From the NCBI GenBank assembly GCA_045595165.1, contig JAZNZY010000021.1, positions 51,382-115,381 of the forward strand: a stretch of DNA of 64,000 bases, written 5' to 3'. Within the stretch, counting starts at the first letter, position 1. Every line of letters starts with the position of its first letter. The notes under the pieces were generated by a model, which saw nothing but the letters and a program-made list of their open reading frames with translations, made no database searches and was not told the origin of the DNA. Both the position numbers and the translations under genes were made by a program. The DNA is from Eubacteriales bacterium (lineage in GTDB: Bacteria > Bacillota > Clostridia > Oscillospirales > CAG-382). Below are positions 30,398 through 60,662 of the stretch, piece by piece.

Positions 30398-30474
30398 GGG
30401 GGCTTAGCTCAGTTGGTTAGAGCACCTGCCTTACAAGCAGGGGGTCACAGGTTCGAGTCCTGTAGCCCCCACCA
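30398..30474 (+). tRNA. tRNA-Val (anticodon TAC), CCA encoded
   Basis: GGGGGCT-TA-GCTCAGTTGGTTAGAGC-A-CCTGC-CTTACAA-GCAGG-GGGTC-ACAGG-TTCGAGT-CCTGT-AGCCCCC-A-CCA. Confidence 0.93.
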
Positions 30475-32133: not shown

Positions 32134-32168
32134 CGGGGTCCCCGAAAACGCCGCGCGTTTTTGGGGTG
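32134..32168 (-). repeat. Rep-C copy
   Basis: cggggtccccgaaaacgccgcgcgtttttggggtg. Confidence 0.8.
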
Positions 32169-32302
32169 TTCATGCGTCCTACCTTCTCCTGTTTTATATA
32201 TCAAAAACCGTGAGTTTTACCTTCTTCTACGGTAGTTTGGCGGGTTTGAGAAAACATAATGTTTTTGGTCTGCTGACCAAAAACTTCCATAGTTCATCGT
32301 TG

Positions 32303-32336
32303 CGGGGTCCCCAAAAATGCCTGCATTTTAGGGGTG
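32303..32336 (-). repeat. Rep-C copy inserted within a heptad arm
   Basis: cggggtccccaaaaatgcctgcattttaggggtg interrupts ...ccatagttcatcgtt | cttctagttcatcgtttatagtt. Confidence 0.8.
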
Positions 32337-32362
32337 CTTCTAGTTCATCGTTTATAGTTTTA

Positions 32363-34897: not shown

Positions 34898-34977
34898 AAT
34901 CACCCCAAGAAGCCTTGCGGCTTCTCGGGGACCCCGTCAATCACCCCAAGAAGCCTTGCGGCTTCTCGGGGACCCCG
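34898..34977 (+). repeat. tandem duplication (2 x 41 bp) of Rep-C
   Basis: aatcaccccaagaagccttgcggcttctcggggaccccg occurs at 34898-34936 and 34939-34977. Confidence 0.9.
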
Positions 34978-34984
34978 ACAACAA

Positions 34985-35614: not shown

Positions 35615-35697
35615 ACGTATGTTATGCAACACCGCAACACGGATTTATGCTTTGCGGTAAAATCATTTTATTCACAGATGAAAGGAACGTAACGAGA

Positions 35698-36775: not shown

Positions 36776-37086
36776 CTTCGCAGATCGAAACGCAAAAAAC
36801 ATTGATACGTAATAACAAATGCGAGAGATTTTAGTTTATCTCTCGCATTCTTGTTTTCTTAATAGGTAGGAATTTGAAAACAAATTCCTTTTTATTTTGC
36901 GTTTCTATAAATTTTCAGTCGGGGGGCAGTAGATTTCTACAGCACCCCGCGCCTGAAAATTCATTCTGCTTTGTTTATACAGCTTCCTGCTTCAATCAGA
37001 CTTTCAGTTCTACAGACGGAATGTATCGAAAACAATTACACGGTTTTTTGCTCTGCAAAAAACTTCCTCATTCCTCATTCCTCATT
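36776..37086 (+). repeat. Rep-A copy 3 (ends in an A/T-clamped hairpin plus TTCCTCA heptad arm)
   Basis: Modules in order: cttcgcagatcgaaacgc; gcgagaga hairpin; taggaatttg..caaattcct plus T-run; gcgtttct; ttttcag..ctgaaaa hairpin; attcattctgctttgtttatacagc; ttttttgctctgcaaaaaa; cttcctcattcctcattcctcatt. Confidence 0.8.
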
Positions 37087-37115
37087 AAAAAACCTCCGAT
37101 TTCTCGGAGGTTTTT
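37087..37115. terminator. bidirectional terminator
   Basis: aaaaaa-cctccga-tttc-tcggagg-ttttt. Confidence 0.8.
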
Positions 37116-38605: not shown

Positions 38606-38634
38606 ATTATATTACGGGTAACGCAAAAAATCAA
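38606..38634 (-). promoter_or_regulatory. sigma-A promoter (TTGATT-17-TATAAT) for the SBP gene
   Basis: Minus strand has ttgatt (38634-38629), a 17-nt spacer and tataat (38611-38606). Confidence 0.6.
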
Positions 38635-38652
38635 GTTTTTTTAATAAATCTA

Positions 38653-38681
38653 TTGCCATTCTTTACATCTTGTGGTAAAAT
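38653..38681 (+). promoter_or_regulatory. sigma-A promoter (TTGCCA-17-TAAAAT, TG-extended), divergent from the SBP promoter
   Basis: ttgcca at 38653-38658, tgg-taaaat at 38673-38681. Confidence 0.5.
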
Positions 38682-38723
38682 CCAAATTGTAACCACTATA
38701 TAAAAGCGGAGGAAAATTTTATA

Positions 38724-39779
38724 ATGAAAATAGCAATTATCGGCTGCGGTACTATCGCAAACAGCGCACACATCCCCTCTTATATGAACAATCCCGAAGC
38801 AGAGATCGTTTATTTCTGTGATATCCTGCTTCACAAAGCAGAAGCTTGCGTAGCTAAATACGGCTGCGGTAAAGCTGTTGAAGATTACAAAGAAGTTCTT
38901 GCCGATCCCGAGATCGAGGCAGTTTCTATCTGCACTCCCAACAGAGAGCACTCCAAAATAGCTATTGACGCTCTCCACGCAGGCAAGCACGTTCTGTGCG
39001 AAAAGCCCGCTGCAAGAACTTATGCAGAAGCTCTTGAGATGCAGAAGGCACAGCACGAAACCGGTAAGGTTCTCAATATCGGCGTTGTTAACCGCTTTAA
39101 CTCCGCTGTAAATAAAGTTCGTGAGCTTATCCAGCGCGGCGATCTGGGCGAAGTTTACCACGTATACGTAAGCTTCCGTTCTCACCGTTCTATCCCCGGC
39201 TTGGGCGGCGCATTCACCACCAAGGCTATCTCCGGCGGCGGCGTACTTATCGACTGGGGCGTACATTATCTTGATATCGTTATGTACTGCACCGGCGACC
39301 CCACTCCCAAGACAGTTACCTGTAACGCATACTCCAAGCTGGGCGTAGATATGCCCAACTACGTATACGAAGGCATGTGGGCTGAGGACACCAAGGACAT
39401 TAACGGTACTTATGACGTTGACGATATGGTTTCCGGCTTCGTTCGTACCTCCGGTCCTTCCATCTCCTTCAACGGCGCATGGGCACAGAATATCGGCGTT
39501 GGCGAAAGCTACATCGATTTCATCGGCACCAAGGCAGGTATCCGTCTTAACTACGGCGGCGATTTCACCGTATACACCACCTCCTGCGGCTCTCTCTGCT
39601 CCTTCAAGCCCAAGTACAAGGATGAGCCTCACTTCCAGAAGGAGATCGACCGCTTTATCGAGTGTATCCACACCGGCGAAAAGCTTCCTTCTCATATCGA
39701 TACCGTCGCTGTTACTGCAAAGATGATGCAGGCTATGTACGATTCTTCCGAACTCGGTAAGGAAATCGTTCTCGACTAA
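38724..39779 (+). CDS. Gfo/Idh/MocA family oxidoreductase
   Basis: MKIAIIGCGTIANSAHIPSY, EKPAA motif. Paralogous to 35698..36774. Confidence 0.85.
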   Translation: MKIAIIGCGTIANSAHIPSYMNNPEAEIVYFCDILLHKAEACVAKYGCGKAVEDYKEVLADPEIEAVSICTPNREHSKIAIDALHAGKHVLCEKPAARTYAEALEMQKAQHETGKVLNIGVVNRFNSAVNKVRELIQRGDLGEVYHVYVSFRSHRSIPGLGGAFTTKAISGGGVLIDWGVHYLDIVMYCTGDPTPKTVTCNAYSKLGVDMPNYVYEGMWAEDTKDINGTYDVDDMVSGFVRTSGPSISFNGAWAQNIGVGESYIDFIGTKAGIRLNYGGDFTVYTTSCGSLCSFKPKYKDEPHFQKEIDRFIECIHTGEKLPSHIDTVAVTAKMMQAMYDSSELGKEIVLD

Positions 39780-39796
39780 TTGGAGCTGTCTAAAAG

Positions 39797-39833
39797 ATCA
39801 CCCCAAAAACGCAAGACGTTTTCGGGGACCCCG
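39797..39833 (+). repeat. Rep-C copy
   Basis: atcaccccaaaaacgcaagacgttttcggggaccccg, 18 nt after the stop codon. Confidence 0.8.
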
Positions 39834-39842
39834 ATCAACTTT

Positions 39843-40212
39843 GCAGATCGAAAAACGCGACAGATGAAATAACGGTTTTCGTTCACCCGTAGGGACAGAC
39901 GTCCCGGCTGTCCGTATCAAAATAAAAATGTAGGAATCCGTTTTTTAACGGATTCCTTCTTTATTTTTTATCGCGTTTTTCTATAAATTTTTACTTCGCT
40001 AGCTGTAGATCACTACAGCACGCTCGTAAAAATTCATTCTGCTTTGTTTATACAGCTCCCCGCTTCAGTTGACTCTCGCTGCTACAGACATTGCGTTTCG
40101 AAAATGATTGTACGGTTTTTTGCCCCGCAAAAAACTTCCGAAATTCATCATTCCTCATTGCGGGGTCCCCAAAAATCCGCAGGATTTTAGGGTGCTTACT
40201 CATTCTTCATTG
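39843..40212 (+). repeat. Rep-A copy 4 (with a nested Rep-C at 40161-40194)
   Basis: Modules in order: tttgcagatcgaaaaacgc; taggaatccg..cggattcct plus T-run; gcgtttttct; tttttac..gtaaaaa hairpin; attcattctgctttgtttatacagc; ttttttgccccgcaaaaaa; cttccgaaattcatcattcctcatt; [Rep-C]; cttactcattcttcatt. Confidence 0.8.
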
Positions 40213-41759: not shown

Positions 41760-41847
41760 ATTATACAGACGGCAGTGACCTGCGAACAGCTTGCGGGACG
41801 ATGGGGACATCGTCCCCTACGGTTATCAAACAGCCGTTAAATAAATT

Positions 41848-41909
41848 TGTTTTTTGCTTCACGCAAAAAATTACCGAAGTTCATAGTTCATAGTTCATCG
41901 TTCATAGTT
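41848..41909 (+). repeat. Rep-B half element (A/T-clamped hairpin plus GTTCATA heptad arm)
   Basis: ttttttgcttcacgcaaaaaa-ttaccgaag-ttcatagttcatagttcatcgttcatagtt. Confidence 0.75.
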
Positions 41910-41942
41910 AAAAAATCCGCAGATTTACTCTGCGGATTTTTT
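41910..41942. terminator. bidirectional terminator (serves the DUF1667 operon on the minus strand)
   Basis: aaaaaatccgcag-atttact-ctgcggatttttt. Confidence 0.8.
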
Positions 41943-45099: not shown

Positions 45100-45885
45100 T
45101 TATTTCTTCTTTTTAATAACAACTACTACCACTACAACTGCGATAACAACTGCTGCGATAACGATACCGATGATAAGACCGGTGTTGCCGCCTTCTTCTT
45201 TATCGGAAGGTTCTTCGGAATTGCCTACTGCGGGAACGGAGGTGTCTTCTTCGGACTCTTCCTTGGAGGGCTCTTCGGAGGGTTCTTCGGAAGGCTCTTC
45301 GGAGGGCTCTTCGGAGGATTCTTCGGGAACTTCCTCGGGAACGTAGTTGGGATCAAGCTCAAAGGTGTTAAAGGTGAGCACTGCACCGTCGCAAGTGAAA
45401 ACAGTGAACTGGGTGATCTCTACGTAGCCGTCTGCGTTTACGCCCACAAGCTCTGCAAGCTGTTCAAAAGAAACAGCGCCCTTGTAGGAACCGGAAAGAA
45501 GGTCGCCGGTGCCGCTTTCGATATTATCGCCCATAAACTTGTGAATGTAGTTGTCGCCGCCGTTAATACGGATGCTGGTCTTACCAATGTCAAAGGAAAG
45601 GTCGTATACAAGGTAGGTGCCTTCGCCAACAAGGATAGGCGCGGGAAGAACTGCGTCTGCCCAAGGCCAGGTTCCTGCTGCAGAGCCGGATACAACGGTA
45701 ACGCCTTCGGTTGTTTCAATGGTAATTTCCGTTCCGTTAACGGGGGTATTTACCCAAAGATCTTTGCAGTTATCGAAGATATCATACTTTTCTTCAATAA
45801 CAACGGGCTCGTCTGCGGAAACGGGAATTGCGAAAAATGCGCAAACGAGAGAAACAATAATAAGTACGCTTAAAAGCTTTTTCAT
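45100..45885 (-). CDS. secreted surface protein, acidic PSEE linker, C-terminal TM anchor
   Basis: Signal peptide MKKLLSVLIIVSLVCAFFAIPVSA. (EEPS)n linker. Tail VPAVGNSEEPSDKEEGGNTGLIIGIV...KKKK. Confidence 0.8.
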   Translation of the reverse strand: MKKLLSVLIIVSLVCAFFAIPVSADEPVVIEEKYDIFDNCKDLWVNTPVNGTEITIETTEGVTVVSGSAAGTWPWADAVLPAPILVGEGTYLVYDLSFDIGKTSIRINGGDNYIHKFMGDNIESGTGDLLSGSYKGAVSFEQLAELVGVNADGYVEITQFTVFTCDGAVLTFNTFELDPNYVPEEVPEESSEEPSEEPSEEPSEEPSKEESEEDTSVPAVGNSEEPSDKEEGGNTGLIIGIVIAAVVIAVVVVVVVIKKKK

Positions 45886-45923
45886 GGTTTTTACTCCTTT
45901 AAAGTGGTTTTTTCAGTACTGCA

Positions 45924-45952
45924 ATTATACAATATCCCTTTCGGAAAGTCAA
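45924..45952 (-). promoter_or_regulatory. sigma-A promoter (TTGACT-17-TATAAT)
   Basis: Minus strand has ttgact (45952-45947), a 17-nt spacer and tataat (45929-45924). Confidence 0.7.
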
Positions 45953-45964
45953 CAATATTAAAAA

Positions 45965-45996
45965 TAAAAATGCCCGATATTTCACGGGCATTTTTG
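45965..45996 (-). terminator. rho-independent terminator of the 434-aa surface protein gene
   Basis: atgcccg-tgaaatat-cgggcat plus a T-run on the minus strand. Confidence 0.8.
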
Positions 45997-46023
45997 TGCT
46001 AAATATAAAATATCAATTATCGA

Positions 46024-47328
46024 TTACTTCTTTTTCTTTGCAACGATAACTACAACTACAACAACTGCAATAACAACTACTGCTACAACGATACCGATGA
46101 TAAGACCGGTGTTGCCGCCTTCTTCCTTATCGGAAGGTTCTTCGGAATTGCCTACTGCGGGAACGGTGGTGTCTTCTTCGGAAGGCTCTTCGGAGGGTTC
46201 GTCGGAAGGTTCTTCAGAGGGCTCTTCAGAGGGTTCTTCGGAGGGTTCGTCGGGCTGTTCAGCGGGAACTGCGTAGTAAACTACTGCGCCGGTTTCGTGA
46301 GTCTGCTCTGCGAAGTTGTAGCCTGCGAAGTATACGATGTCGCCTGCAACGAGAGCTGCGAGAGCTTCTTTGTTTGCAGCAGCTTCGGTGCTTTCGCCGT
46401 GAACTGCGAATGCGATGTCGCCTTCCTGAACGTCTGCAAATGCGAATTCATAGTCGCCGTCTGCAGCCTTAACTTCTACTACGGAGTACTGACCTTCGGT
46501 TTCGGTGGGTCTGAGAAGTACGCATGCGGACCAAGCTACGTTGTATGCAGCGAGGTTGGTGGGATCGGTGATGATGGTGTTGGAATCGGTTACGATAGAC
46601 TTGTTGAAGGGAACGTGCTTAATGAACTTTGCACCTGCGGGAATTTCAACGATAGGCTCGATCTCATTAAGATCTATGGATTCTTCCTGGCTTACTTCGC
46701 CGATTTCAGGACCGCCGGCAGACTTAAGGCTTGCGCCAACCTCGGTAAGACCAACCCATTCCCAGCAAACCTTGACGTCCCAGTCGTTACCGGTCTGACC
46801 GTGAGCGCCCATAAAGAAGGATACGGAAACGTATTTTGCGTTAACGGGAGCAGCGAGGTCGATAACTACTTCGCGCTGGAAGGACTGAGTAATGTCTTCG
46901 ATAGTGCTGTCCATGGTGTAAGAGAATTCGTCGAACGCATTACCGTCTACGGAAGTACCAACGATAAGATCGCCATCGGTAGGAAGACCGATCATAGCGT
47001 TTGCGTAGCAGAACCAGTAAAGAGTAATGGTGTCGATGCTCTGAACGGAATCAAGTTCGAAAACGATGGTGCACTCGGTGGGAGTACCGGTGGTGCATGC
47101 CTTATTCTGAACAAGAAGGATACCGGCTTTGTTAAAGTCACGGGCTGCAGCGTCAGCTTCGGAAAGGATTGCGCCGTCAAAAAGCTGAGCGGGATCGTCA
47201 GATGCGAGAGCTTCAACGTTGTCGCCTTTGAATTCAACGGATACAACGTTTGTTTCTGCTGCTGCGGGTATCAGAAAAAGAACTGAAACGAGAGCAACTG
47301 CGAGAATTGCGCATAAAAGCTTTTTCAT
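46024..47328 (-). CDS. secreted surface protein: discoidin/F5-8-type-C-like domain, unknown domain, PSEE linker, C-terminal TM anchor
   Basis: Start moved to MKKLLCAILAVALVSVLFLIPAAA (ATG 47328), because the promoter -10 at 47371-47376 lies inside the 20-codon ORF-track extension. LFDG...WVGLTEVGA is discoidin-like. The tail is the same as in the 45100 gene. Confidence 0.8.
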   Translation of the reverse strand: MKKLLCAILAVALVSVLFLIPAAAETNVVSVEFKGDNVEALASDDPAQLFDGAILSEADAAARDFNKAGILLVQNKACTTGTPTECTIVFELDSVQSIDTITLYWFCYANAMIGLPTDGDLIVGTSVDGNAFDEFSYTMDSTIEDITQSFQREVVIDLAAPVNAKYVSVSFFMGAHGQTGNDWDVKVCWEWVGLTEVGASLKSAGGPEIGEVSQEESIDLNEIEPIVEIPAGAKFIKHVPFNKSIVTDSNTIITDPTNLAAYNVAWSACVLLRPTETEGQYSVVEVKAADGDYEFAFADVQEGDIAFAVHGESTEAAANKEALAALVAGDIVYFAGYNFAEQTHETGAVVYYAVPAEQPDEPSEEPSEEPSEEPSDEPSEEPSEEDTTVPAVGNSEEPSDKEEGGNTGLIIGIVVAVVVIAVVVVVVIVAKKKK

Positions 47329-47370
47329 AGGGTTTTTTGCTCCTTTAAATAATAATATTTTGGTGAAGTG

Positions 47371-47399
47371 ATTATACACTATTTGCAAGAGAAAGTCAA
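47371..47399 (-). promoter_or_regulatory. sigma-A promoter (TTGACT-17-TATAAT)
   Basis: Minus strand has ttgact (47399-47394), a 17-nt spacer and tataat (47376-47371). Confidence 0.7.
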
Positions 47400-47407
47400 C
47401 AACAAAA

Positions 47408-47436
47408 ACAAAAATGTCCGTGTTTTACGGACATTT
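47408..47436 (-). terminator. rho-independent terminator of the 448-aa surface protein gene
   Basis: atgtccgt-aaaac-acggacat plus a T-run on the minus strand. Confidence 0.8.
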
Positions 47437-47455
47437 CTGCTTATATTTCTCGCTA

Positions 47456-48802
47456 TTATCTTTTCTTTTTAACAACAATTACCACTACAACTACAATGGC
47501 AGCTACTGCAATTACAGCTACTACGATACCGATAATAAGGCCTGCGCCGACAACACTTGTCTGTTCGCCGGAAACGGGTTCGGATCCTTCGGTGTCCTCA
47601 TCGGAAACGTCTGCTGCGGGTTCGGATTCATCGGTTGCGGGTTCGGATTCGTCGGTGGGTTCGGATTCTTCGGAGGGCTCTTCGGAAACGTCTTCGGAGG
47701 GCTCTTCGGAAGCTTCGCCGTTATCGGGAGTAGCGGTGTTATCTATAAAGTAAACAACTGCGCCTCTTTCAAAGGACTGTTCCTCAAAATTATAGCCTGC
47801 GAAGGTAACGGTGTCCCCTGCAACAAGAGCGTTGAGCGCAAGTCTGTTTGCCTTGGTGCCGTCTGCATCATCATCGCCGTGAACGGAAAGAACCATATCA
47901 CCCTCTGCCGCATCGGCAAAAACAAAGGTTTCGCTGCCGTTTACCCATTCAACAGCCACTACCTCGTAAACGCCTTCGGTTTCGGTAGGTCTGATAAGTG
48001 CGCAGGAGGTCCACTTAACATTGAAATCCTGCATAGTTGCGGGATCGGTAATGATAGTGTAAGAGCCGGTGGTGATAGAGGTGTTGAACTTAGCGTGCTT
48101 GAGTGCTACGTGTCCTTCGGGAATTTCTACGATAGGCTCGATCTGATCGAGGGGAGTGTTGTCCTCGCTTACTTCCTCATAGCCGCCGTCAAGAACTTCA
48201 TCTACCTCAAGGCCTGCGCCGACTTCGGTAAAGCCGACCCATTCCCAAAGAGGGCACCACCAGTCGCTGTATCCGTGGGGGCCGAATTCAAAGGTAACAG
48301 AAACGTATTTTGCCTTTACGGTCTGACCCAGTCTTATAGTGGTATCAAGCTGAAAGGAGGTATCGGGGTCGGTTTCGCCCTCGAAATCGTATGCGCCGAT
48401 CTCGGTGTAAATGTCGCCGTCTGCGGAATAGCCTATGATAAGGTTATTGTTAACGGGCAGACCGATTATTGCCATGTGATACACGTACCAGGTGATATAA
48501 ACGGTGTCTATATCCTGAAGGGAATCAAGCTCGAAATACATGGTTGCAATGGTGTTTTCGGTATCGTTCATATCGGTGTTCTGAAGCAGAACGATGCCTT
48601 CCTTGGTGAAGTCACTGGCGTTCGCATTTTCTTCGGAAAGGATCTTGTTATCGTAAAGAAGGGTAAGATCTGCTCCTGCGCGAACCTTTACGTCGCCCTC
48701 AAACCAAACCTTGGTTACGTTCGCCTTTGCATCTGCGGGGATAGCAAGCAAAGCGCAAACAACGGCGAGAACGATAAGTACGCTTAAAATTCTTTTTTTC
48801 AT
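47456..48802 (-). CDS. secreted surface protein, paralogue of 46024..47328
   Basis: Signal peptide MKKRILSVLIVLAVVCALLAIPADA. Same two-domain layout. Acidic SEEPSE linker. TM plus a KKKR tail. Confidence 0.8.
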   Translation of the reverse strand: MKKRILSVLIVLAVVCALLAIPADAKANVTKVWFEGDVKVRAGADLTLLYDNKILSEENANASDFTKEGIVLLQNTDMNDTENTIATMYFELDSLQDIDTVYITWYVYHMAIIGLPVNNNLIIGYSADGDIYTEIGAYDFEGETDPDTSFQLDTTIRLGQTVKAKYVSVTFEFGPHGYSDWWCPLWEWVGFTEVGAGLEVDEVLDGGYEEVSEDNTPLDQIEPIVEIPEGHVALKHAKFNTSITTGSYTIITDPATMQDFNVKWTSCALIRPTETEGVYEVVAVEWVNGSETFVFADAAEGDMVLSVHGDDDADGTKANRLALNALVAGDTVTFAGYNFEEQSFERGAVVYFIDNTATPDNGEASEEPSEDVSEEPSEESEPTDESEPATDESEPAADVSDEDTEGSEPVSGEQTSVVGAGLIIGIVVAVIAVAAIVVVVVIVVKKKR

Positions 48803-48833: not shown

Positions 48834-48937
48834 AACGATGAACTATGAACTATGAACTATGAACGAATGGTTGATTTTTGTTCTGCGAACAAAAATCTTC
48901 CGAAGTTCCTCGTTCATCGTTTCTAGTTCCTCGTTTC
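48834..48937 (-). repeat. Rep-B full element B2 (heptad arm - hairpin - heptad arm), within the 5' leader of the 47456..48802 gene
   Basis: aacgatgaactatgaactatgaactatgaacga-atggttg-atttttgttctgcgaacaaaaat-cttccgaag-ttcctcgttcatcgtttctagttcctcgtt. It is the reverse complement of B3. Confidence 0.85.
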
Positions 48938-48968
48938 CAAACGCTCTGCGTTATTTTTTACTGCTCCA

Positions 48969-48997
48969 ATTATACGCTGTTTGCATAAAAAAGTCAA
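48969..48997 (-). promoter_or_regulatory. sigma-A promoter (TTGACT-17-TATAAT), about 160 nt upstream of the ATG
   Basis: Minus strand has ttgact (48997-48992), a 17-nt spacer and tataat (48974-48969). Confidence 0.65.
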
Positions 48998-49042
48998 CGG
49001 ATTTTTAAATGTAAATTTTTATTACCCGATATGCATAATTAT

Positions 49043-49070
49043 TTACAATATATTAATTTTGTGTTATAAT
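49043..49070 (+). promoter_or_regulatory. sigma-A promoter (TTACAA-16-TATAAT, TG-extended) for glxK
   Basis: ttacaa at 49043-49048, tgt-tataat at 49062-49070. Confidence 0.5.
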
Positions 49071-49092
49071 GTAAGGAAAGAGGTGGTAAAAG

Positions 49093-50175
49093 ATGAATTT
49101 TTTGCTTATACTCGATTCTTTTAAGGGAAGCATATCCTCTTATAACGCCGCAAAAGCTCTTAAAGAGGGCTTGGGAGGCGGAGAGATTGTCCCTTTTTCC
49201 GACGGAGGCGAGGGATTTGCCGAATGTGTCGAATACCTCTGCGGAGGTAAAAGAATATGTTTTCCCTCCTTTGACAGCTACGGAAAAGAAATATCCTCTT
49301 ACTATCTGCGTATCGGCGATACGGCGGTGATCGAAACCGCGCTGGCGGACGGGCTTATTACAGTGGGGGAAAACCACCCGAACATTATATACGCCAACTC
49401 CTTCGGCACGGGACACACAATTAAAAAAGCTCTTGAAGACGGGTGCAAAAAGCTGATAATCGGATTCGGCGGAAGCGCCGTAAACGACGGAGGCGCAGGT
49501 GCGCTTTGCGCCTTGGGTGCCCGCATTGTCGGCGGAAAAGGGCTTACCGCCCTGGCGGGAGAATGGGCAACGAGTATTGACCTTGAGAATCTCACCCCTC
49601 TCCTGAAGGAAGCAGAAATTATATTCGCCTGCGACGTGGACAACCCCTACTGCGGGGAAAAAGGCGCATCTATGGTGTTTTCACCCCAAAAAGGGGCAGA
49701 TGCCGCCACGGCTTTGCGTATGGAAAAGAGCCACAGGAAGTTTGCCGAATTCCTTTTCCGCGCTACGGGAAAGGATGTTTCCCACATACCCGGCGCAGGG
49801 GCGGCAGGAGGGCTTGCAGGTGGAATTATGGCTGTATGTGAGCCGAAAATACAAAGCGGGTTTGACGTGCTTTCAAGCCTTTGCTCGCTTAAAGAGAGAA
49901 TTTCCCGCGCAGACGTGATTATTACGGGAGAAGGCAAAACTGATTCTCAGACTTTAATGGGAAAGCTTCCCTTGCGTGTAACGGCGCTTGCAAAGGAAAT
50001 GGACAAAAAGGTCGTCTGTGTTTCGGGTATGATAACCGAAGAGGGCAAAAATCTGGGAGCAGACCTTTATATACCCCTTTCCCACGGGGATATTACTCCG
50101 CAGATGACCATGGCAGACCCGAGAAAATATCTTATTAACGCAGGAAAACAAATTAAAAATATATACGAGGTATGA
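49093..50175 (+). CDS. glxK: glycerate kinase
   Basis: MNFLLILDSFKGSISS..., GFGGSAVNDGGAG, ITGEGKTDSQTLMGK. Confidence 0.88.
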   Translation: MNFLLILDSFKGSISSYNAAKALKEGLGGGEIVPFSDGGEGFAECVEYLCGGKRICFPSFDSYGKEISSYYLRIGDTAVIETALADGLITVGENHPNIIYANSFGTGHTIKKALEDGCKKLIIGFGGSAVNDGGAGALCALGARIVGGKGLTALAGEWATSIDLENLTPLLKEAEIIFACDVDNPYCGEKGASMVFSPQKGADAATALRMEKSHRKFAEFLFRATGKDVSHIPGAGAAGGLAGGIMAVCEPKIQSGFDVLSSLCSLKERISRADVIITGEGKTDSQTLMGKLPLRVTALAKEMDKKVVCVSGMITEEGKNLGADLYIPLSHGDITPQMTMADPRKYLINAGKQIKNIYEV

Positions 50176-51161
50176 AAATGGATACTAACCAAACCGCACA
50201 GACCCCCGAAATCACCCAAAACGAGCCCGTGGCAGTAAAAGCTCCCGCTAAAAAGCGCCGCCGCAGAAATTCCTGGTGGGGCGTGACTCTTTGCGTATTT
50301 CTGGCGTTCGGAGTATTTGTTTCCGCCGCCGCAGGAACGGGATTTTTGCTTTTGAGAAACGCCGTTGCAGGCGATATCGTACATACCGTGGTTGAAAAGA
50401 CCGACGTGCTCTCCCTTGAAATCGGCGGTACTACGGTTGTGGAAAAGGTAGAGGAAGTATTAAAATCCTCGGGCAACGAAACCCTCGCTTCCATGACCAC
50501 CGAGGAGATACGTGCTTTTGCGGAAAACGCAGGACTTGACGAAGCGCTTAAGGGATTGCTTGACCAAGCCCAGGATTATCTTACGGGGAATGCCAACAGC
50601 TTTGAAATAACTCCCGAGCAGATACTGGTTCTGGTTGAGGACAACAAGCAGAATATTTACGATGCAACGGGATATGAGATAACCGAAGATGACCTTAAGC
50701 AGATAGAAGAGGTGCTTGAGGAACACACCGAAACCATTAATCAGGCGGCGGAGGAGGTTCTTACCAATCCCACCGTAAAGACTACTATGACCACCGTTAA
50801 CGTGGTGATAAGTCCCTATATCCCCATCGCCTGCTTTGCTGTATGCGCAGTATGTGTTTTGCTTATGATCCCCTGCCTGCGCAGAAAGGAAGCGGTGTTC
50901 GTATTCTCCGGTATGCCCGCGCTGTTTTTGGGAGCCGCGCTTACCGTAGTATATGCACTTTCCTCCACCATTACCGAATTCGTGGTAGCCCGGATATATA
51001 TGCCCGCCACGATGCTGACGGTGGCAAGAACCGTTTTATCCGTAATTTTCGAGCCTATCCTTAAAGCGGGCATTATCGCCGCATCGGTAGGCGTAGTATT
51101 TATAATAATCCACATAATTCTTGCGGTTGTTTTAAAGGTAAGACACGCAAAAAAGGCTTGA
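50172..51161 (+). CDS. hypothetical membrane protein
   Basis: ATGA overlap with the glxK stop. Basic KKRRRRN followed by a TM, a soluble segment of about 170 aa, then 3-4 C-terminal TM segments. No family recognised. Confidence 0.65.
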   Translation: MKMDTNQTAQTPEITQNEPVAVKAPAKKRRRRNSWWGVTLCVFLAFGVFVSAAAGTGFLLLRNAVAGDIVHTVVEKTDVLSLEIGGTTVVEKVEEVLKSSGNETLASMTTEEIRAFAENAGLDEALKGLLDQAQDYLTGNANSFEITPEQILVLVEDNKQNIYDATGYEITEDDLKQIEEVLEEHTETINQAAEEVLTNPTVKTTMTTVNVVISPYIPIACFAVCAVCVLLMIPCLRRKEAVFVFSGMPALFLGAALTVVYALSSTITEFVVARIYMPATMLTVARTVLSVIFEPILKAGIIAASVGVVFIIIHIILAVVLKVRHAKKA

Positions 51162-51180
51162 TGACACAGGAGGCACATCA

Positions 51181-52143
51181 ATGGCACAATTAACAAACGG
51201 ACACGAGCAGGCAAGAGCCCTTACGAAAGGTCTTTTTAAGGCGGTTTTGGGCAAGGAAAAGGAAGCGGTGCTTTTGGTCACCGCATTTCTCGCAGGGGGA
51301 CACGTGCTGATCGAGGATGTGCCCGGCGTGGGTAAGACCACCCTTGCTTCCGCTTTGGCAAGACTTTCCGGTCTGGATTACACCCGCATACAGTTTACGC
51401 CCGACGTAACCCCTTCCGACATAACCGGTTTTAATATGTTTGATAAGCGCTCCGGCGATTTTGTGTTCCGCCCCGGCGCGGTAAGCACGGATATTTTCCT
51501 TGGGGACGAAATAAACCGCGCATCCCCCAAGACACAGTCCGCGCTTCTTGAGTGTATGAACGAGGGCACCGTCACCGTTGACGGCGAGATACACCCTCTC
51601 CCCAAGGTGTTTACGGTTATTGCAACCCAGAACCCTATGGGATTTGTAGGTACCTATCCCCTGCCCGAAGCCCAGGTTGACAGATTTTGTATGAGATTTT
51701 CCATGGGCTACCCCACCTTTGAGGCGGAAATGCGTATTGCCGCAGGTATGACCCACGAAAACACCCTGCCCACACTTACTCCCGTAACGGATGCGGAGTC
51801 TATTCTGGCTATGCGTGAGGAAGTAAAAAAGGTTGCGGTAGACGAAGAAATATACAAATACGCCGTTTCACTCATAACCGCCACCCGTAACAACAAATAC
51901 ATATCTCTGGGCGCATCTCCCCGCGGAAGCGTAATGGTTGTGCGCCTTGCGAAAGCATACGCATATCTGCAGGGCAGAGATTACGTTTTGCCCGAGGATA
52001 TTCACGCTATGTTCGTTCCCTGCATAAACCACAGAATAACTCTTTCTCAGGAGGCAAAGCGTCAGTTCCTCTCCGTTGAGGACGTGCTGAACGCTATTCT
52101 TAAGGAAACGGATATTCCCCACCGCGGAAAAGGCAGAATATGA
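51181..52143 (+). CDS. MoxR family AAA+ ATPase
   Basis: Walker A DVPGVGKTTLA. FTPDVTPSDITG. Walker B FLGDEINRA. RBS aggagg. Confidence 0.9.
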   Translation: MAQLTNGHEQARALTKGLFKAVLGKEKEAVLLVTAFLAGGHVLIEDVPGVGKTTLASALARLSGLDYTRIQFTPDVTPSDITGFNMFDKRSGDFVFRPGAVSTDIFLGDEINRASPKTQSALLECMNEGTVTVDGEIHPLPKVFTVIATQNPMGFVGTYPLPEAQVDRFCMRFSMGYPTFEAEMRIAAGMTHENTLPTLTPVTDAESILAMREEVKKVAVDEEIYKYAVSLITATRNNKYISLGASPRGSVMVVRLAKAYAYLQGRDYVLPEDIHAMFVPCINHRITLSQEAKRQFLSVEDVLNAILKETDIPHRGKGRI

Positions 52144-53402
52144 AAAAAAGCGAAAAGTTTGGTGAAACACGGCTTATAAAACAGCCCTTTTACCCCGTGC
52201 CCTCTCTTTTGTTCCCCTTTTACGGGGCGGCGGTGTTCGGACTTTGCTGTTATGCCATAATCCGTAAAAACACACCTATGGGAATAGCCGCCACCTTTTT
52301 GATGGTGCTTCCCGTTATATCACTTATTTACGCCTTTATATGCTTTTGCGGAATAAGCGCGGAATTAAGCTTTGATAAGCAATTCCTGCGCAAGGGCGAA
52401 AGCGCCCACGCTACCCTTACGGTATACAATTATTTTCCCATTCCCCTGCCCGGACTTACGGCGGCACTGTATCTTCCCAAAGAGGAAAAGGATGGGTACG
52501 TATACACCCGCATCCCCGTCAAGAGCAAGACGGGTGTAACTATGGGCGGATTGCGGGCGGTAACAGCCGTAAAGCAGGTATCCTTCGGGCTGGCGGGAAG
52601 ATTTACCGTATACTGTAAAAAGCTTTCCGTCCACGATCCGCTGGGCTTGTTCAGAATAGTAAGCAGGACGGAGTTCACGGTTGATATGCCCGTAATTCCC
52701 GTAGAAGGCAGAAAGACCGATCAGCTTCGCACCGCAAGCGGTACGGGCGAGGGGGCGGACAGAAACCGCCGCGGCGATGACCGTGACGAGGTGTTCGAGA
52801 TAGCAGATTACGCTCCCGGGGACAGCCTTAAGGATATTCACTGGAAAAGAAGCGCAAGGGAGGAAGAATTGCAGATAATCCGCTTTGCTTCCCCTAAGGA
52901 AAAATGCCATTGCGTGCTTTGCGATACGGGAGATTACCTCGCCTGCGGCACGGAAAATAAAAATGACAAAAACCCCGCGCTCCTGGATGCGGTTCTGGAA
53001 ACCGCCTACGGAATGTGTATATCCCTTTCCTCGGAGGGTGACAGCGTTTTGCTGGCCTGGCGGGACGGAAAAGAGGATATAGGTGTGACCGCTTCTATGG
53101 AGGAGGGCTTTATTTCCCTTTGCAAAAGCGGATACTTACCACTTGGCACGGGCAAACGGATAGATCCCGTTATTTTAAGCGAGGCGGACGCGGTAACGCT
53201 GGTTACAGCCGCCGTTAACGAGGATACCGCCGCACAGATTATCGCTTTGCAGACCGAAGCGCCAAATATTAAAGGCATTGCGGTAATGGTGTGCGCTCCC
53301 GAGGGAAGCGCTCCCATAACCGACGAAAATATAATTAAAAAGCTGGAAAGCGCAGGAATTATCATAGGATTTTCCTTGGCAGAGAAGGGAGGAAAGGTAT
53401 GA
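52140..53402 (+). CDS. DUF58 domain protein (with N-terminal TM segments)
   Basis: DUF58 signature IADYAPGDSLKDIHWKRSAREEELQIIRF. ATGA overlaps with both neighbouring genes. Confidence 0.8.
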   Translation: MKKSEKFGETRLIKQPFYPVPSLLFPFYGAAVFGLCCYAIIRKNTPMGIAATFLMVLPVISLIYAFICFCGISAELSFDKQFLRKGESAHATLTVYNYFPIPLPGLTAALYLPKEEKDGYVYTRIPVKSKTGVTMGGLRAVTAVKQVSFGLAGRFTVYCKKLSVHDPLGLFRIVSRTEFTVDMPVIPVEGRKTDQLRTASGTGEGADRNRRGDDRDEVFEIADYAPGDSLKDIHWKRSAREEELQIIRFASPKEKCHCVLCDTGDYLACGTENKNDKNPALLDAVLETAYGMCISLSSEGDSVLLAWRDGKEDIGVTASMEEGFISLCKSGYLPLGTGKRIDPVILSEADAVTLVTAAVNEDTAAQIIALQTEAPNIKGIAVMVCAPEGSAPITDENIIKKLESAGIIIGFSLAEKGGKV

Positions 53403-55885
53403 ATTTCCGCCCCAATGCAACAAGAAAATACCGTATTTTTGAATCCGCCTCAACGGCAATGGGCTTTTTCGCCTGCCTTATACTGTGTATGGTTACCGTT
53501 TTCGGAATTGCGGGGTACGCAGAGCAGACCATCCTGCCCGAAATAAGCGTTGGCACGGTTTGGTTCGCTTCCGCGGCGGTGATCGCGGCAACGGGAACAG
53601 CGTTTCTGTTTTCCGCAGAATGGATAGTTTACCCCGCCCTCGCTTTGGGCGGAGCGGGAATTTCTCTTTTGTGCTTTATTCCCTTAAGCGAAGCCGTAAC
53701 GGAAAAATTAAACAAGATAGGCGAAGAAATATACAAATTCGAGCCTGAATACTATATCCCATATCACGATTGGGAGCTTACTCTGGTTGCAATACTGCTG
53801 GCATCCGTCTGCGCAGTACTGCTTACCCACTTTATGTTAAGATGTAAAGTGCTCGTCCCCGTTTTGCTTACCTCCGGGGTAACGCTGGGACTGTTCGTTT
53901 CCCTTGAGCGAAACGAAAGCATACACTTTTTTGTAATGATCCTTTGTATTGCCGCAATGCTGTGCGTTGCCGTGCAGGGCAAAGGCGGAAAGGCTATGGG
54001 AAGCGTTATACCCATAACCAGGATCGGCGTAAAGACGTTGGCGTTTTTCCTTGCCGCCGCCATAGTGCTTATACCCGTGGCATCCGACGAGGCGTTTTCA
54101 AAATCCGTAATGGACACTATATCTCAGCTTACGGGTATAAAGCCGCCCACGGTTGCACCCGGCGGATTCGGGGACGCCAGCAGCGACGTGTCTATGGACG
54201 GATACGAGCAGTTTATGAACGACCTTGAGGAAAAGCAATCCCAGACCGACCTTGAGGACATAGAGTTTGATAACGTACTTTTATACATCGTGTCCGGCGC
54301 CGATGACGGCGGGGATATGTTCCTCCGCCGCCGTATACACTATGAATACGGTAATAACGCTTGGACTTTATCTACTTCAACCTCTGAGGATCTGACAGAC
54401 GATTCCTTCAGGCTTCTTGCGGATGCCCAAAGAGGAGATCTTACTGCCCTGCCCAGTTCCCGTGATTTTATTACAGTTGCAGGCGTGGTCAAGCCTCTTT
54501 ATCCTGCCATACCTGCGGGAAGCACGCATATCTCCAACCCCAACGAAGAGGCATTTTATGATCTGGACGGGGACGGGGTAAAGGAAAGATACCCTGCTGT
54601 TACCACCCACACCTACCGTTTTCAAGATATTGAATTCGATGACGAGTGGTTTGATTTCCTGCGCAAAAACACCGATATCGACTGGGGCTACGAAGCCTTT
54701 GGTATGAAGGATTACCAAAACCCCGAGTTTGTAATTTCCGGTGATGAATTGCTGGATAAGGAATTGCGTGCCCTTATGCTGGATCTTCTTATGCGCTACT
54801 GCGGTTATCAGACCTACGATGAATGGCTGGCTGCGGAGGATTCGGTTATAGATGCTATCGAAGCCGTACAGATATACCTTTCCGAAACCAAATATTACAC
54901 AATGAACCCACAGATGTCCGATCGGTACGAAAATTACGATCACGAGAAGGACAGTATATACAACTTCCTGTTTAACACCGGCGAGGGATACTGCGTACAG
55001 TTTGCCTCCACCGCCGCACTGCTGCTTCGCTCCATCGGCATAAACACCCGTTACGTTACGGGATATTCTTCCAGAGGCGCGGACTTCAGCGGAAACAGGC
55101 ATATTTACGATTCCAACTCCCACGCCTGGTGCGAGGTGGAGCTTTACGGTTACGGCTGGGTGCCCTTTGAAATGACCTACGCTGCTATGCAAAACTCCAT
55201 AGGCTCCGAAGGACCTACCCTCGATCCTCCCAATTTCCCGGAGGAAGTGTCAACGGAAGAGCCTTCCGCCGACGAAAGTGAGGAAATAAGCGAAGAGGAA
55301 TCAAGCGAAGCCGAGAGCAGCGAAGAGAAATCAAGCGAAGACTCTGCGGTTTCCGACGTATCCGATGACGGCTCTTTGGTTGAAAGTGTTGGCGAAATGT
55401 CGGCAGACCTGCCGAAAAACAATAAAAAAGCGATTATCTATTGTATTTGTATCGCTTTTTGTGGTATAATCCTTACGTTGACCGCCGCACTTATATACCG
55501 CCGCAACGAAAAACGGCGCAAAAACACCCTTAAAACCAGAGAGAAATACTCTCTGGGCGAAGGGGATGCGGAAAAAGGTCTTTTGGAACTGCATTCACAG
55601 CACATAAAGCTTTTGCGTCTGAAAGGCTTTACCCCCATCAAGGGCGAAAAATATCCCGAATATATCAAGCGTGTGTGCAGGTCCGCGCCCGATATGCCCA
55701 ATCCCAAGTTTGTAATGGAATACTTCCGCAAAGCCGAATTCGGCGGTGTCTGCACCAAGGAAGAGCTGGCGGCGGCAGGAAAGCATATGCTTTTGTTGAA
55801 CGATTACGTTTACACCACTTTAAAGGGATTTAAAAAGCGGAAGGCTTATTTTGACGGACTGCTTACAAAGCCAAAGCAAAAATGA
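53399..55885 (+). CDS. polytopic membrane transglutaminase-like protein
   Basis: About 6 N-terminal TM segments. Core GEGYCVQFASTAALLLRS...HAWCEVELYGYGWVPFE. Acidic Ser/Glu linker, one more TM, and a cytoplasmic tail. Confidence 0.85.
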   Translation: MNFRPNATRKYRIFESASTAMGFFACLILCMVTVFGIAGYAEQTILPEISVGTVWFASAAVIAATGTAFLFSAEWIVYPALALGGAGISLLCFIPLSEAVTEKLNKIGEEIYKFEPEYYIPYHDWELTLVAILLASVCAVLLTHFMLRCKVLVPVLLTSGVTLGLFVSLERNESIHFFVMILCIAAMLCVAVQGKGGKAMGSVIPITRIGVKTLAFFLAAAIVLIPVASDEAFSKSVMDTISQLTGIKPPTVAPGGFGDASSDVSMDGYEQFMNDLEEKQSQTDLEDIEFDNVLLYIVSGADDGGDMFLRRRIHYEYGNNAWTLSTSTSEDLTDDSFRLLADAQRGDLTALPSSRDFITVAGVVKPLYPAIPAGSTHISNPNEEAFYDLDGDGVKERYPAVTTHTYRFQDIEFDDEWFDFLRKNTDIDWGYEAFGMKDYQNPEFVISGDELLDKELRALMLDLLMRYCGYQTYDEWLAAEDSVIDAIEAVQIYLSETKYYTMNPQMSDRYENYDHEKDSIYNFLFNTGEGYCVQFASTAALLLRSIGINTRYVTGYSSRGADFSGNRHIYDSNSHAWCEVELYGYGWVPFEMTYAAMQNSIGSEGPTLDPPNFPEEVSTEEPSADESEEISEEESSEAESSEEKSSEDSAVSDVSDDGSLVESVGEMSADLPKNNKKAIIYCICIAFCGIILTLTAALIYRRNEKRRKNTLKTREKYSLGEGDAEKGLLELHSQHIKLLRLKGFTPIKGEKYPEYIKRVCRSAPDMPNPKFVMEYFRKAEFGGVCTKEELAAAGKHMLLLNDYVYTTLKGFKKRKAYFDGLLTKPKQK

Positions 55886-55914
55886 TTTTTTAAAGAAAAA
55901 AGGAGTAGGTTTTT

Positions 55915-56433
55915 ATGACATATTGCCCTCAATGCGGATACGCACTTCGTGAAGGAGTGGTGATCTGCCCCTCCTGCGGAACAAAAACTCTTTGCGAAAT
56001 TCTCACCGTAAAGGAAGAAAAAAAAGAAGAGAGTATAGCGCAAATCCTGACGAAAGCGGAGTCCGCGCCCCTCTCTGCCTCTGCGCAGGCGGAAGCGTTC
56101 CCGATCCCCGCGCCCGCAGAGGAAAAGGAGCAAGCGCCGGTAAAAACCTCATACAGCGATAACGTGCTTCCCACGGGAAGATACGCAGTCCTTTCCACGG
56201 GCGGATATTTAATAAACCAGTTGTTGTTTATGGTACCCGTTATCGGATTTATAATCGCTATCATAATGGCGTGCGCATCCAAAAAGGTAAACCGCCGCAG
56301 ACACGCGCTGAGCGCGGTGATACTGCACATCATATTTTTGGTGCTGGCAGGCGGTATCGCGGGGATATCCGCGGTGTTCGGATATTCCGCAGTGGTTGCG
56401 GCAATAACGGAATGGCTTAAAGCTTTAATGTAA
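55915..56433 (+). CDS. zinc-ribbon domain membrane protein
   Basis: MTYCPQCGYALREGVVICPSCG, followed by two or more TM segments. Confidence 0.7.
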   Translation: MTYCPQCGYALREGVVICPSCGTKTLCEILTVKEEKKEESIAQILTKAESAPLSASAQAEAFPIPAPAEEKEQAPVKTSYSDNVLPTGRYAVLSTGGYLINQLLFMVPVIGFIIAIIMACASKKVNRRRHALSAVILHIIFLVLAGGIAGISAVFGYSAVVAAITEWLKALM

Positions 56434-56445
56434 TCACCCCGACAA

Positions 56446-56479
56446 TAAAAAAGAGCAGACTGTGTCTGCTCTTTTTTTT
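56446..56479. terminator. bidirectional rho-independent terminator
   Basis: aaaaa-agagcagac-tgt-gtctgctct-ttttttt. Confidence 0.85.
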
Positions 56480-56582
56480 AACGATGAACTAGAAACGAGG
56501 AACGAGGAACTTCGGAAGATTTTTGTTCGCAGAACAAAAATCAACCATTCGTTCATAGTTTATCGTTCATAGTTCATCGTTT
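56480..56582 (+). repeat. Rep-B full element B3
   Basis: aacgatgaactagaaacgaggaacgaggaa-cttcggaag-atttttgttcgcagaacaaaaat-caaccat-tcgttcatagtttatcgttcatagttcatcgtt. A 57-nt core is identical to the reverse complement of B2. Confidence 0.85.
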
Positions 56583-56583
56583 C

Positions 56584-57501
56584 TTACGGTAAAACCAGTT
56601 GTACTGCGCCTTCCAATATCTTAAGCACGGGATCGCGCATTAATATAATCTCTCCGTCCACGTTAAAGGGGATACGGTTGGGAGAGCATATTTTTAATTT
56701 CTTGCAGCGGCGGAAGGTAACTACATCCTTCGCTTTTTCAAAATGCTCGCCTTTTTTATATATGTTTACCAGCTTTAAAATGCCCGCTCGGGAAACACGG
56801 TCGATACAGACAAAATCCATAAGCCCATCGTTTACCTTGGCGTACGGAGCGGCTTTATATGCGCCGCCGTAATAATTTCCGTTGGCGGCGAGGGCGAACA
56901 TACAAGGGTGGGATCCGCCGAAAACGTCCTCATCATCACAAATAACGGTGTATTCGTATTTTTCGTACTTTAAAAAGCATTCAACCAGGGACATATTGTA
57001 TGAGCCTTTTCCTCCCAAAATACGGCGGTATTTGCCCATTCCGTCTGCCACCGCGGAATCAAAACCCGCAGACGCTACATTTACGCTTATGTATCCCGTG
57101 CCGCTTTCCGAATCCGTAACGGAAATAACGTCCAGCGGTACTGTTTTTCCCTTGGAAACCCGCTTCAGATCTCGGAAATCCGACGGAGTGTAATCCGGAA
57201 ACGCCTTTATAAAATCGTTTCCGCTTCCCGTGGGGACAACCGCCACGGAGCAGTTTTTACTGCCGGAGCGGATTATTCCCGTAACCACCTCGTTAAAGGT
57301 GCCATCTCCTCCGCAGGCGTAAATACGTAGGTGATCATCGGTGTTTTTTAATTGCTCGCACACCTCACGTATAGCATCCTTCGCGCATACGGTAACGTAT
57401 TTTTCACATTTTTCAAGGTGTAGCTTATCCACCGCTTCGGAAATAATGTTCGAACGGTCTTTACTGCCCGCAACGGGGTTTAATATAAAAAGATGCTTCA
57501 T
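56584..57501 (-). CDS. diacylglycerol/lipid kinase family protein (YegS/DagK-like)
   Basis: MKHLFILNPVAGS..., ACGGDGTFNEV, PTGSGNDF. Confidence 0.85.
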   Translation of the reverse strand: MKHLFILNPVAGSKDRSNIISEAVDKLHLEKCEKYVTVCAKDAIREVCEQLKNTDDHLRIYACGGDGTFNEVVTGIIRSGSKNCSVAVVPTGSGNDFIKAFPDYTPSDFRDLKRVSKGKTVPLDVISVTDSESGTGYISVNVASAGFDSAVADGMGKYRRILGGKGSYNMSLVECFLKYEKYEYTVICDDEDVFGGSHPCMFALAANGNYYGGAYKAAPYAKVNDGLMDFVCIDRVSRAGILKLVNIYKKGEHFEKAKDVVTFRRCKKLKICSPNRIPFNVDGEIILMRDPVLKILEGAVQLVLP

Positions 57502-60521: not shown

Positions 60522-60527
60522 AAATTA

Positions 60528-60630
60528 AATGAGGAATGAGAAATGAGAAATGAGAAATTAAGGAAGCTTATTGCACCGCGGTGCAAAAAGCAACCATCAT
60601 TCATCATTTATCATTCATCATTCCTCATTA
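60528..60630 (+). repeat. Rep-B full element B4 (AATGAGA / TTCATCA heptad arms)
   Basis: aaatgaggaatgagaaatgagaaatgagaaat-taaggaag-cttattgcaccgcggtgcaaaaag-caaccat-cattcatcatttatcattcatcattcctcatt. Confidence 0.8.
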
Positions 60631-60662
60631 AAAAACTCCCGATTTTATCGGGAGTTTTTGTT
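60631..60662. terminator. bidirectional rho-independent terminator
   Basis: aaaaaa-ctcccga-tttta-tcgggag-ttttt. Confidence 0.85.

Follow-up and report, generated by a model that had tools for sequence, protein, structure and literature searches.

The stretch of Eubacteriales bacterium DNA analysed here (64,000 nucleotides of contig JAZNZY010000021.1, referred to as the window) contains two near-identical palindromic elements, B2 and B3, which lie in inverted orientation on either side of a 7.5-kb block of genes that starts with the glycerate kinase gene glxK. The arrangement raises the question of whether these elements delimit a unit that can be inverted or that was acquired as a whole, both of which the initial annotation of this DNA had suggested. 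We found that B2 and B3 very probably belong to one subclass of a repeat family that is dispersed, modular, non-coding and intergenic. Their bracketing of the block marks no mobile or invertible unit, and the presence of such a pair around it is largely a coincidence of intergenic geography.

Repeat search and direct reading placed the full-length elements at 48834..48935 (B2, + strand, canonical orientation) and 56480..56581 (B3, - strand, with the core opposite to that of B2). In the repeat search they formed inverted arms of 102 nt that are 96% complementary and separated by 7544 nt. They had been annotated as reverse complements with an exact 57-nt core and few mismatches, confined to the arms. 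Direct counting bore this out, with four mismatches (48851, 48854, 48916 and 48930), all in the heptamer arms, and an identical run that in fact extends over 61 nt (48855-48915). Although each element is itself near-palindromic, the inverted relation is real, because their similarity in direct orientation is only 61%. B2 consists of a left part (48834-48872), in which a purine heptamer arm is followed by ATGGTT, a hairpin with a perfect 11-bp stem (48873-48897; GATTTTTGTTC-TGC-GAACAAAAATC), and a right part (48898-48935) made of TTCCGAAG and a pyrimidine heptamer arm. The hairpin of B3 is found at 56518-56542. Arms of this type are 31-39 nt long and inverted, and the 102-nt element has stop codons in all six frames. 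On either strand both elements were predicted to fold into a bulged hairpin of ~50 bp (-41.5 / -39.5 kcal/mol, z -9.0 / -7.1 for B2; -43.2 / -44.7 kcal/mol, z -7.9 / -8.6 for B3). The heptamer array motif gave no occurrences across 100 shuffles of the window.

Members of the family follow a canonical order: a purine-rich heptamer array (RAAYKAK)n, with heptamers such as GAACTAT and GAATGAG, then an asymmetric core, then a complementary pyrimidine-rich heptamer array, the whole being a near-palindrome of ~100 nt. The core reads (A/T)ATGG, 2-4 nt, a perfect stem of 8-13 bp, 2-4 nt and CCG(A/T)AR; its stem holds a T5-6/A5-6 tract and its loop is 3-7 nt long. Because the core is asymmetric, every element has an orientation, canonical on the + strand for B2 and on the - strand for B3. 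Three classes of arm were distinguished (GAAC..., GAAT... and an all-purine GAAGAGT type). Both arms belonged to the same class in 35 of 42 elements (Fisher p = 3e-5), and chimeras occur.

One test defined units without reference to a hairpin, requiring only that a pyrimidine array come within 20-60 nt after a purine array. In each of the 36 units the spacer held a perfect stem of 8 bp or more; shuffling gave 5 at most. These units contained 11 distinct stem sequences, with no G-T pair in any of them. Since it is always perfect across 11 sequences, the stem must be kept through fully compensated changes. This result comes from the alignment-free test; for RNAalifold (21 cores), MAFFT put the two main core types out of register. 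In copies with the GATTTTTGTTC hairpin, the 3-nt loop read in canonical orientation was TGC in 28, GCA in 14, ACA in seven and ACG in three. GCA is the reverse complement of TGC, and the loop has flipped independently of its asymmetric flanks at least once, as expected of template switching in a perfect palindrome.

Over ~400 kb of sequence the census gave 87 members, representing 17 stem variants; all but one (86) fell outside long open frames. The density is ~1 per 9 kb once the copies used to fetch the loci are discounted, and seven members lie in the window. Across six GTDB species representatives there are ~55 exact copies of the B2/B3 hairpin, besides one unrelated chance match. All six are metagenome-assembled genomes (MAGs) of ruminant-gut Clostridia/Oscillospiraceae, and the family was found only in that clade. 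JGI metagenome contigs gave no matches to a subclass-specific 42-nt pattern and two unrelated chance matches, both lacking heptamers, to the general hairpin pattern; the family was also absent from the viral contigs, plasmids and phages searched. Rfam returned only tRNAs for the window at the gathering threshold, and only sub-threshold noise for two stretches at E<=1-5. A literature text search for heptamer arrays found no relevant report. The family is lineage-restricted and corresponds to none of the catalogued repeat or RNA families.

What, then, is the history of the block between the two elements? It spans 49093..56433 on the + strand (Pfam; synteny in seven relatives) and comprises glxK (49093-50175), a gene for a 329-aa protein (50172-51161) and genes for a MoxR AAA+ protein (51181-52143), a DUF58 protein (52140-53402), a TgpA-like transglutaminase (53399-55885) and a zinc-ribbon protein (55915-56433). 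Pfam recovered the gene content originally listed, except that the 329-aa protein, listed as a membrane protein, had a weak NTPase_1 match only. Comparison of synteny showed the block to be present, and never inverted, in all seven relatives, over which glxK identity falls from 93% to 52%. The entire block and both flanks are collinear in L001 and L002 (both 84% for glxK), and L003 (93%) has the left junction and most of the block. L043 covers the right junction in a single collinear 8-kb match (90% nucleotide identity). Among the more distant loci, L051 and L052 (68% and 67%) contain the entire block and both flanks, and L053 (52%) contains the block and the left flank, with a different right flank. 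The left neighbours (a glycerol-3-phosphate dehydrogenase operon and repeat-protein genes) are constant in all seven relatives where the left side is visible, and the right neighbours (DAGK/YegS, HIGH_NTase and acetate kinase) in five. L051-L053, the most distant three, have no heptamer arrays in 21 kb each, and both of their junctions are short and empty. The block predates the repeat family, because these three have it in synteny without the arrays. It is an ancestral chromosomal operon.

This history bears directly on the proposal that the glxK/MoxR/transglutaminase genes arrived by horizontal transfer in a composite unit with B2 and B3 at its ends. Its appeal lies in the geometry, with near-identical inverted repeats exactly at the edges of a co-directional block. 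The block, however, stays in the same place down to the most distant relative, including the three that have no repeats, and the left junction is empty in L002. Its GC content (0.47-0.50) is like that of its flanks, and a Pfam scan of the 53 open reading frames (ORFs) of the window found no transposase, integrase, or serine or tyrosine recombinase. The same repeats also recur, at the density given above, at unrelated sites. The window is core chromosome, with PolC, IspG, Dxr, CdsA, UppS, Frr, PyrH, UvrA, UvrB and AckA. We consider acquisition as a composite unit to be extremely improbable, and this part of the initial annotation is abandoned.

The two junctions were then followed from genome to genome. 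The B2 site is empty in L002, where a 164-bp intergenic region contains only the conserved divergent promoters. In L001 it is occupied by a different, composite repeat of ~290 nt (L001 9585-9860), and in L003, a contig that begins inside the repeat, by an arm of the ATTCCTC class in which a CGTC-type palindrome is nested. At the B3 site, L043 has the same hairpin with AATGAT-class arms, every heptamer having changed in concert and complementarily on both arms, and L002 has another hairpin with two nested GGGGTTCCCC palindromes. L001 (17330-18060) has there an insertion of ~700 bp with a 101-aa membrane-protein ORF. The GAAC-class arms at both sites are therefore specific to the lineage of the window. 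Both are ordinary intergenic gaps that bound a transcription unit, a divergent promoter region on the left and a convergent terminator region on the right. In close relatives, too, both gaps hold family members, there of other subclasses, and the bracketing is thus a by-product of the position of intergenic space. As a separate observation, the L001 insertion has inverted repeats of ~30 nt (GACATTAGGCTTATTCTCATAAGGATGTTT) at its boundaries, and remnant AATGAGG heptamers lie beside the DAGK stop codon.

The same pattern of turnover was seen across the family. In 121 orthologous-site comparisons between genomes, which are not independent of one another, the element was nearly always retained, yet the stem differed in ~60% and the core was flipped in ~35%, even where the flanks were at least 90% identical. 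Between RGIG7185 and RGIG321, at 96-98% flank identity, we observed heptamers gained or lost one at a time, substitutions at the degenerate positions of heptamers, an inserted 40-nt palindrome, one flip and one wholesale replacement. Module exchange thus outpaces flank substitution.

We also asked whether B2 and B3 resemble each other more than the family would lead one to expect. On a 103-nt measure, 26 non-orthologous pairs with the same hairpin and GAAC-class arms were compared, cross-species pairs included. B2/B3 was the most similar (0.951), followed by pairs at 0.932 and 0.922 that involve copies in other species; other non-orthologous pairs of the same subclass are 81-93% identical. Copies of this subclass in other species are 88-93% identical to B2/B3, with B3 reaching 93% against L035:1150 in RGIG321 and B2 92% against both L035:1150 and L047:1936. 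Whether the pair is exceptionally similar was a question raised in the initial annotation; it ranks first, but at 95% it stands at the top of the range and is not a clear outlier; the core and a limited heptamer vocabulary explain most of the identity. On balance we favour recent local copying or conversion between B2 and B3 in the lineage of the window, because the pair is the first of 26 and both sites carry the lineage-specific arm class.

The other proposal was that B2 and B3 are the inverted repeats of an invertible 7.5-kb segment, recombined by a RecA-type or site-specific route and serving as a regulatory switch or as a source of recurrent structural variation. The 102 nt of inverted homology, with its 61-nt perfect run, would suit such a role, and core flips inside elements are common. 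There is also a precedent beside leuS, where a ~0.9-kb unit consisting of a promoter, a gene for a 250-aa membrane protein and a terminator is inverted between two related MAGs (L010 129-1011 versus L030 4197-5058). The unit is flanked on both sides by family elements, whose heptamer arms contain the breakpoints; the gene took the inner arms with it, and the core on the leuS side did not move. With a purine arm at one end of every element and a pyrimidine arm at its other end, any two neighbours face each other with inverted repeats. For the glxK block, however, a single orientation was found in all seven relatives, 119 of 124 flank-pair comparisons around family elements were collinear, and the 53 ORFs of the window include no recombinase gene. 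Inversion would also be expected to detach a conserved putative promoter (48969-48997) from the leftward gene at 47456-48802 and to aim it antisense into the DAGK gene, and this loss of the promoter probably explains why block inversion is absent. An invertible segment is accordingly very unlikely in our judgement. The suggested substrate for homologous inversion is mechanistically reasonable and has its one precedent at leuS, but no relative carries the inverted block; inversion is possible and unobserved, a real potential that is unrealised. No assembly of the same strain turned up when glxK, the zinc-ribbon protein and DAGK were looked up as exact proteins.

The dispersed family with sites that persist and modules that change is therefore the reading that we prefer, and a mechanism may be proposed for it. 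Copies would be renewed at fixed sites by copy-and-replace, that is by gene conversion or re-insertion, seeded by the common heptamer arms and core. Recombination between the inverted arms would flip the core within an element and, rarely, flip a gene between two elements. Slippage would alter the number of heptamers, and template switching would hold the stem perfectly palindromic. Several points weigh against this account. No transposase, consistent target-site duplication or master copy was found, so that copy-and-replace is inferred from the patterns. The census is biased, the loci having been fetched through one hairpin variant, and the copy number and identity spectrum of the source organism are extrapolated from relatives. 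The comparison genomes are nearly all short-read MAGs or metagenome contigs, which are least reliable at repeats. Finally, a special relation between B2 and B3, such as a recent conversion, is likely and may matter, given that the pair ranks first of 26.

A different explanation for the persistence of the elements is that they are kept mainly for use by the host, as hairpins in untranslated regions (UTRs) that act on mRNA stability, processing or termination, or as heptad arrays that bind a protein. Effects of UTR hairpins on mRNA stability, processing or termination have been shown for some REP, Correia and BOX elements. The left neighbour of the block, a gene for a 448-aa repeat-rich protein (47456..48802, - strand), is faced by a promoter-like TTGACT-17-TATAAT (48969..48997, - strand; 11/12), the hexamers of which are kept in L002 and L051, both without an element. 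Judging from the sequence, B2 would lie in the 5' UTR of this gene, between promoter and ribosome-binding site, where it would add a hairpin of -40 kcal/mol. A second promoter-like site, TTTACA-17-TATAAT (49042..49070, + strand; TG-extended), appears to serve the glxK operon, and its region is conserved in L001-L003. On the right, B3 abuts both the stop codon of the DAGK_cat/YegS_C lipid kinase gene (56584..57501, - strand; Pfam), its start being 2 bases past the stop (56584), and a putative bidirectional terminator. The latter was read from the sequence as an A-tract, a GC hairpin (GAGCAGAC-ACA-GTCTGCTC) and a T-tract (56447..56479, no strand assigned); it may serve the zinc-ribbon gene and also the DAGK gene, from which B3 separates it. 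It is conserved in L001, L002 and L043, and was not called by a simple terminator scanner. B3 would thus lie in the DAGK 3' UTR, as a hairpin of ~50 bp when transcribed.

If the elements had such a role, B2 and B3 would tune the adjoining genes, which is compatible with the origin of the pair that we favour. Several features are in keeping with it: sites stay occupied across species while modules change, stems are always perfect with many compensated variants, the predicted folds are very stable, and elements adjoin terminators and directly follow stop codons. By analogy, contiguous 7-bp repeats could also be protein-binding arrays, as they are known to be in Firmicutes plasmids (PMC9499535). 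Other features speak against it. The orthologous junctions of L002 and L051-L053 manage without an element, arm class and hairpin sequence are freely exchangeable, counter to a sequence-specific partner, and the lack of G-T pairs in the stems suggests a constraint at the level of DNA and not of RNA. A rough ORF-based tally showed no clear orientation bias relative to flanking genes, and is only indicative, since the greedy ORF caller was misled by long shadow ORFs and by TTG starts inside the hairpin. Retention mainly for host use seems to us doubtful.

More specific functions were tried as candidates and rejected. For the core hairpin as a terminator, no T-run follows the stem, and separate canonical terminators lie beside the elements. 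For the heptamers as LexA sites (Cheo box, GAAC-N4-GTTC), Spo0A boxes or CsrA sponges, the defining spacing or GGA motif is not constant across arm classes.

Among known repeats, the family behaves like REP/BIME elements, MITEs (miniature inverted-repeat transposable elements) and BOX, in that it is intergenic, hairpin-forming, modular and polymorphic at conserved sites; its build, with tandem 7-nt arrays around an always-perfect hairpin, is unusual and uncatalogued. REP, BIME and REPIN elements are high-copy, extragenic and hairpin-forming, and mosaic with other short motifs (PMC3733652, PMC2817692, PMC3116915). Like the B family, REP/BIME elements lie mostly between convergent or co-directional genes, vary in composition at conserved sites and form a long hairpin from two inverted halves. 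As to size, the REP unit is 20-40 bp, the B core hairpin 25-30 nt and the whole repeated B unit, heptamer arms included, ~100 nt. The B family differs in its arms of tandem 7-nt arrays, its perfect A/T-tract stem and its Clostridia host. In REP and REPIN the palindrome is by definition tagged at one end with an unpaired tetranucleotide, GTAG or CGTC (PMC3733652); B2 and B3 contain no GTAG/CTAC and no CGTC/GACG at any position. No RAYT (Y1 transposase) was found by Pfam among the 53 window ORFs, and the GTAG- or CGTC-tagged palindromes of these genomes are separate elements, some of them nested inside B arms.

Non-coding MITEs, among them the Neisseria Correia element (CREE) and the pneumococcal RUP, are 100-150 bp long and have terminal inverted repeats around a core (PMC2649163, PMC10969869). 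As with B elements, their location is intergenic and can be within a UTR, relatives differ in whether a copy is present, and the sequence folds into a long hairpin. The B family shares with them the inverted terminal repeats, the small size, the lack of coding capacity and the presence/absence polymorphism (the left junction in L002, both junctions in L051-L053), although in-situ replacement is much commoner. Its terminal repeats are variable-number heptamer arrays of three interchangeable classes, whereas those of a MITE are a fixed transposase-binding sequence. Many copies end in TTAA...TTAA; B2, B3 and several others have no common duplicated flank, and the empty site in L002 is too diverged for a comparison. 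No parent insertion sequence sharing the ends of B was found in the window, and the plasmid, phage and viral collections gave no matches.

BOX elements of Streptococcus have the form boxA-(boxB)n-boxC, with a tandem module of strain-variable number and predicted stem-loops (PMC3049150). They resemble the B family as modular intergenic repeats of Firmicutes, with a variable tandem array and a predicted stem-loop when transcribed. The architecture sets the two apart, the B family having 7-nt arrays at both ends around a constant core hairpin and BOX a 45-nt unit in the middle of the element. The arms themselves recall the contiguous 5'-WATCACW-3' heptads of omega/ParB in Firmicutes plasmids, omega being a ribbon-helix-helix protein of pSM19035 (PMC9499535). 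Both consist of contiguous 7-bp repeats, direct and inverted, in runs of 4-10 in Firmicutes DNA (PMC9499535). The omega arrays, however, are WATCACW, few, plasmid-borne, placed over promoters and without a central hairpin, whereas the B arms are RAAYKAK in hundreds of chromosomal copies. This resemblance is only a lead towards a possible protein-binding role.

The window contains further members, which are more diverged than B2/B3, as annotated (41848 and 60528). At 60525..60632 (- strand) lies a full element whose arms are AATGAGG-class and whose hairpin (GCTTATTGCACCG/CGGTGCAAAAAGC) is not that of B2/B3; the orthologous site in L043 has the GATTTTTGTTC hairpin instead. A one-armed member (41848..41910, + strand) combines the hairpin TTTTTTGC-TTCAC-GCAAAAAA with a GTTCATA-class arm. 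At its orthologous site in L038 the arm is kept, the core is different and flipped, and the left arm is purine-class. The three 'half copies' listed at 32262, 37044 and 40115 exist and are indeed more diverged, but they are the 3' modules of another repeat and not truncated B elements. This second, composite repeat of ~290-430 nt occurs in the window at 31774-32360, 36808-37090 and 39965-40205, in L001 at 9585-9860, and also in L026 and L027. It combines a palindrome that bears a GTAG tag with a CTGTAG-N4-CTACAG hairpin and, often, with a nested GGGGTCCCC palindrome, has no Rfam match, and occupies orthologous B-element sites in other genomes, such as the B2 site in L001. Its window copies end in a B-like hairpin and pyrimidine heptamers. 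These B-like 3' modules are at 32261..32356 (with the nested GGGGTCCCC palindrome), 37043..37086 and 40115..40205 (with a nested palindrome), all on the + strand.

Other palindromes accompany the B elements. A family of ~40 nt (GGGGTCCCC/GGGGTTCCCC, an A-tract, a variable hairpin, a T-tract and GGGGTG) is often nested in B arms and was found in the window at 32302-32339, 40160-40197, 34898-34979 (two tandem copies), 39796-39836, 32133-32171 and 5727-5760. One copy, at ~2470 in L039, shows clean presence/absence against L017 at 98% flank identity, with TT on either side of the insert. A third nested palindrome, with constant ends TTTAGC and GCGTCGCATTC (CGTC tag) and a variable hairpin, lies between heptamers in L003 (1-13), L002 (17548-17575) and many other loci. 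GTAG-tagged, GC-rich REP-like palindromes (GTAGGGGACGATGTCCCCATCGTCCC) adjoin B members at 41803-41830 in the window and at ~17860-17940 in L001. At 5524-5720 and 30540-30680 the window has clusters of short variable hairpins with a constant GTATGGAAT(C) tag between them, beside two tRNA genes (5813-5885, - strand, and 30398-30471, + strand). Within these clusters a 47-nt inverted pair of 94% identity (5524-5570 / 30604-30650) brackets a 25-kb housekeeping operon, as B2/B3 do the glxK block.

Two groups of paralogous genes were also noted. The left neighbour of the block is one of three tandem paralogues (45100-48802, - strand; 261, 454 and 448 aa) with 12-nt tandem repeats encoding 4-aa, Glu/Pro/Ser-rich units; there are three such genes in L001, two in L002 and L051, and one in L052 and L053. 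Two oxidoreductase paralogues, 35647-36774 (Gfo/Idh/MocA family by Pfam) and 38631-39695 (no Pfam match), have near-identical stretches of 38-45 nt in common and both lie between copies of the composite repeat.

It is conceivable, though we think it quite improbable, that the family is an undescribed class of interspersed element with a dedicated clade-specific protein that drives copy-and-replace, core flips and occasional inversions. Such a protein may be a hairpin-recognising one of HUH/Y1 type or a heptad-binding one of ribbon-helix-helix type, acting on the T/A-tract stem and the 7-bp arrays. If so, the family would actively drive local genome rearrangement and reshape UTRs in these gut Clostridia, and B2/B3 would be a freshly converted pair. 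For the glxK locus itself the outcome is deflationary, as the flanking repeats are uninformative on the origin of the operon. The family breaks short-read assemblies (L003 starts inside one element) and can bound small inversions, which bears on MAG quality and on the inference of synteny. With modules swapped at fixed sites between flanks that are 96-98% identical, it offers a clean system for following the renewal of short repeats.

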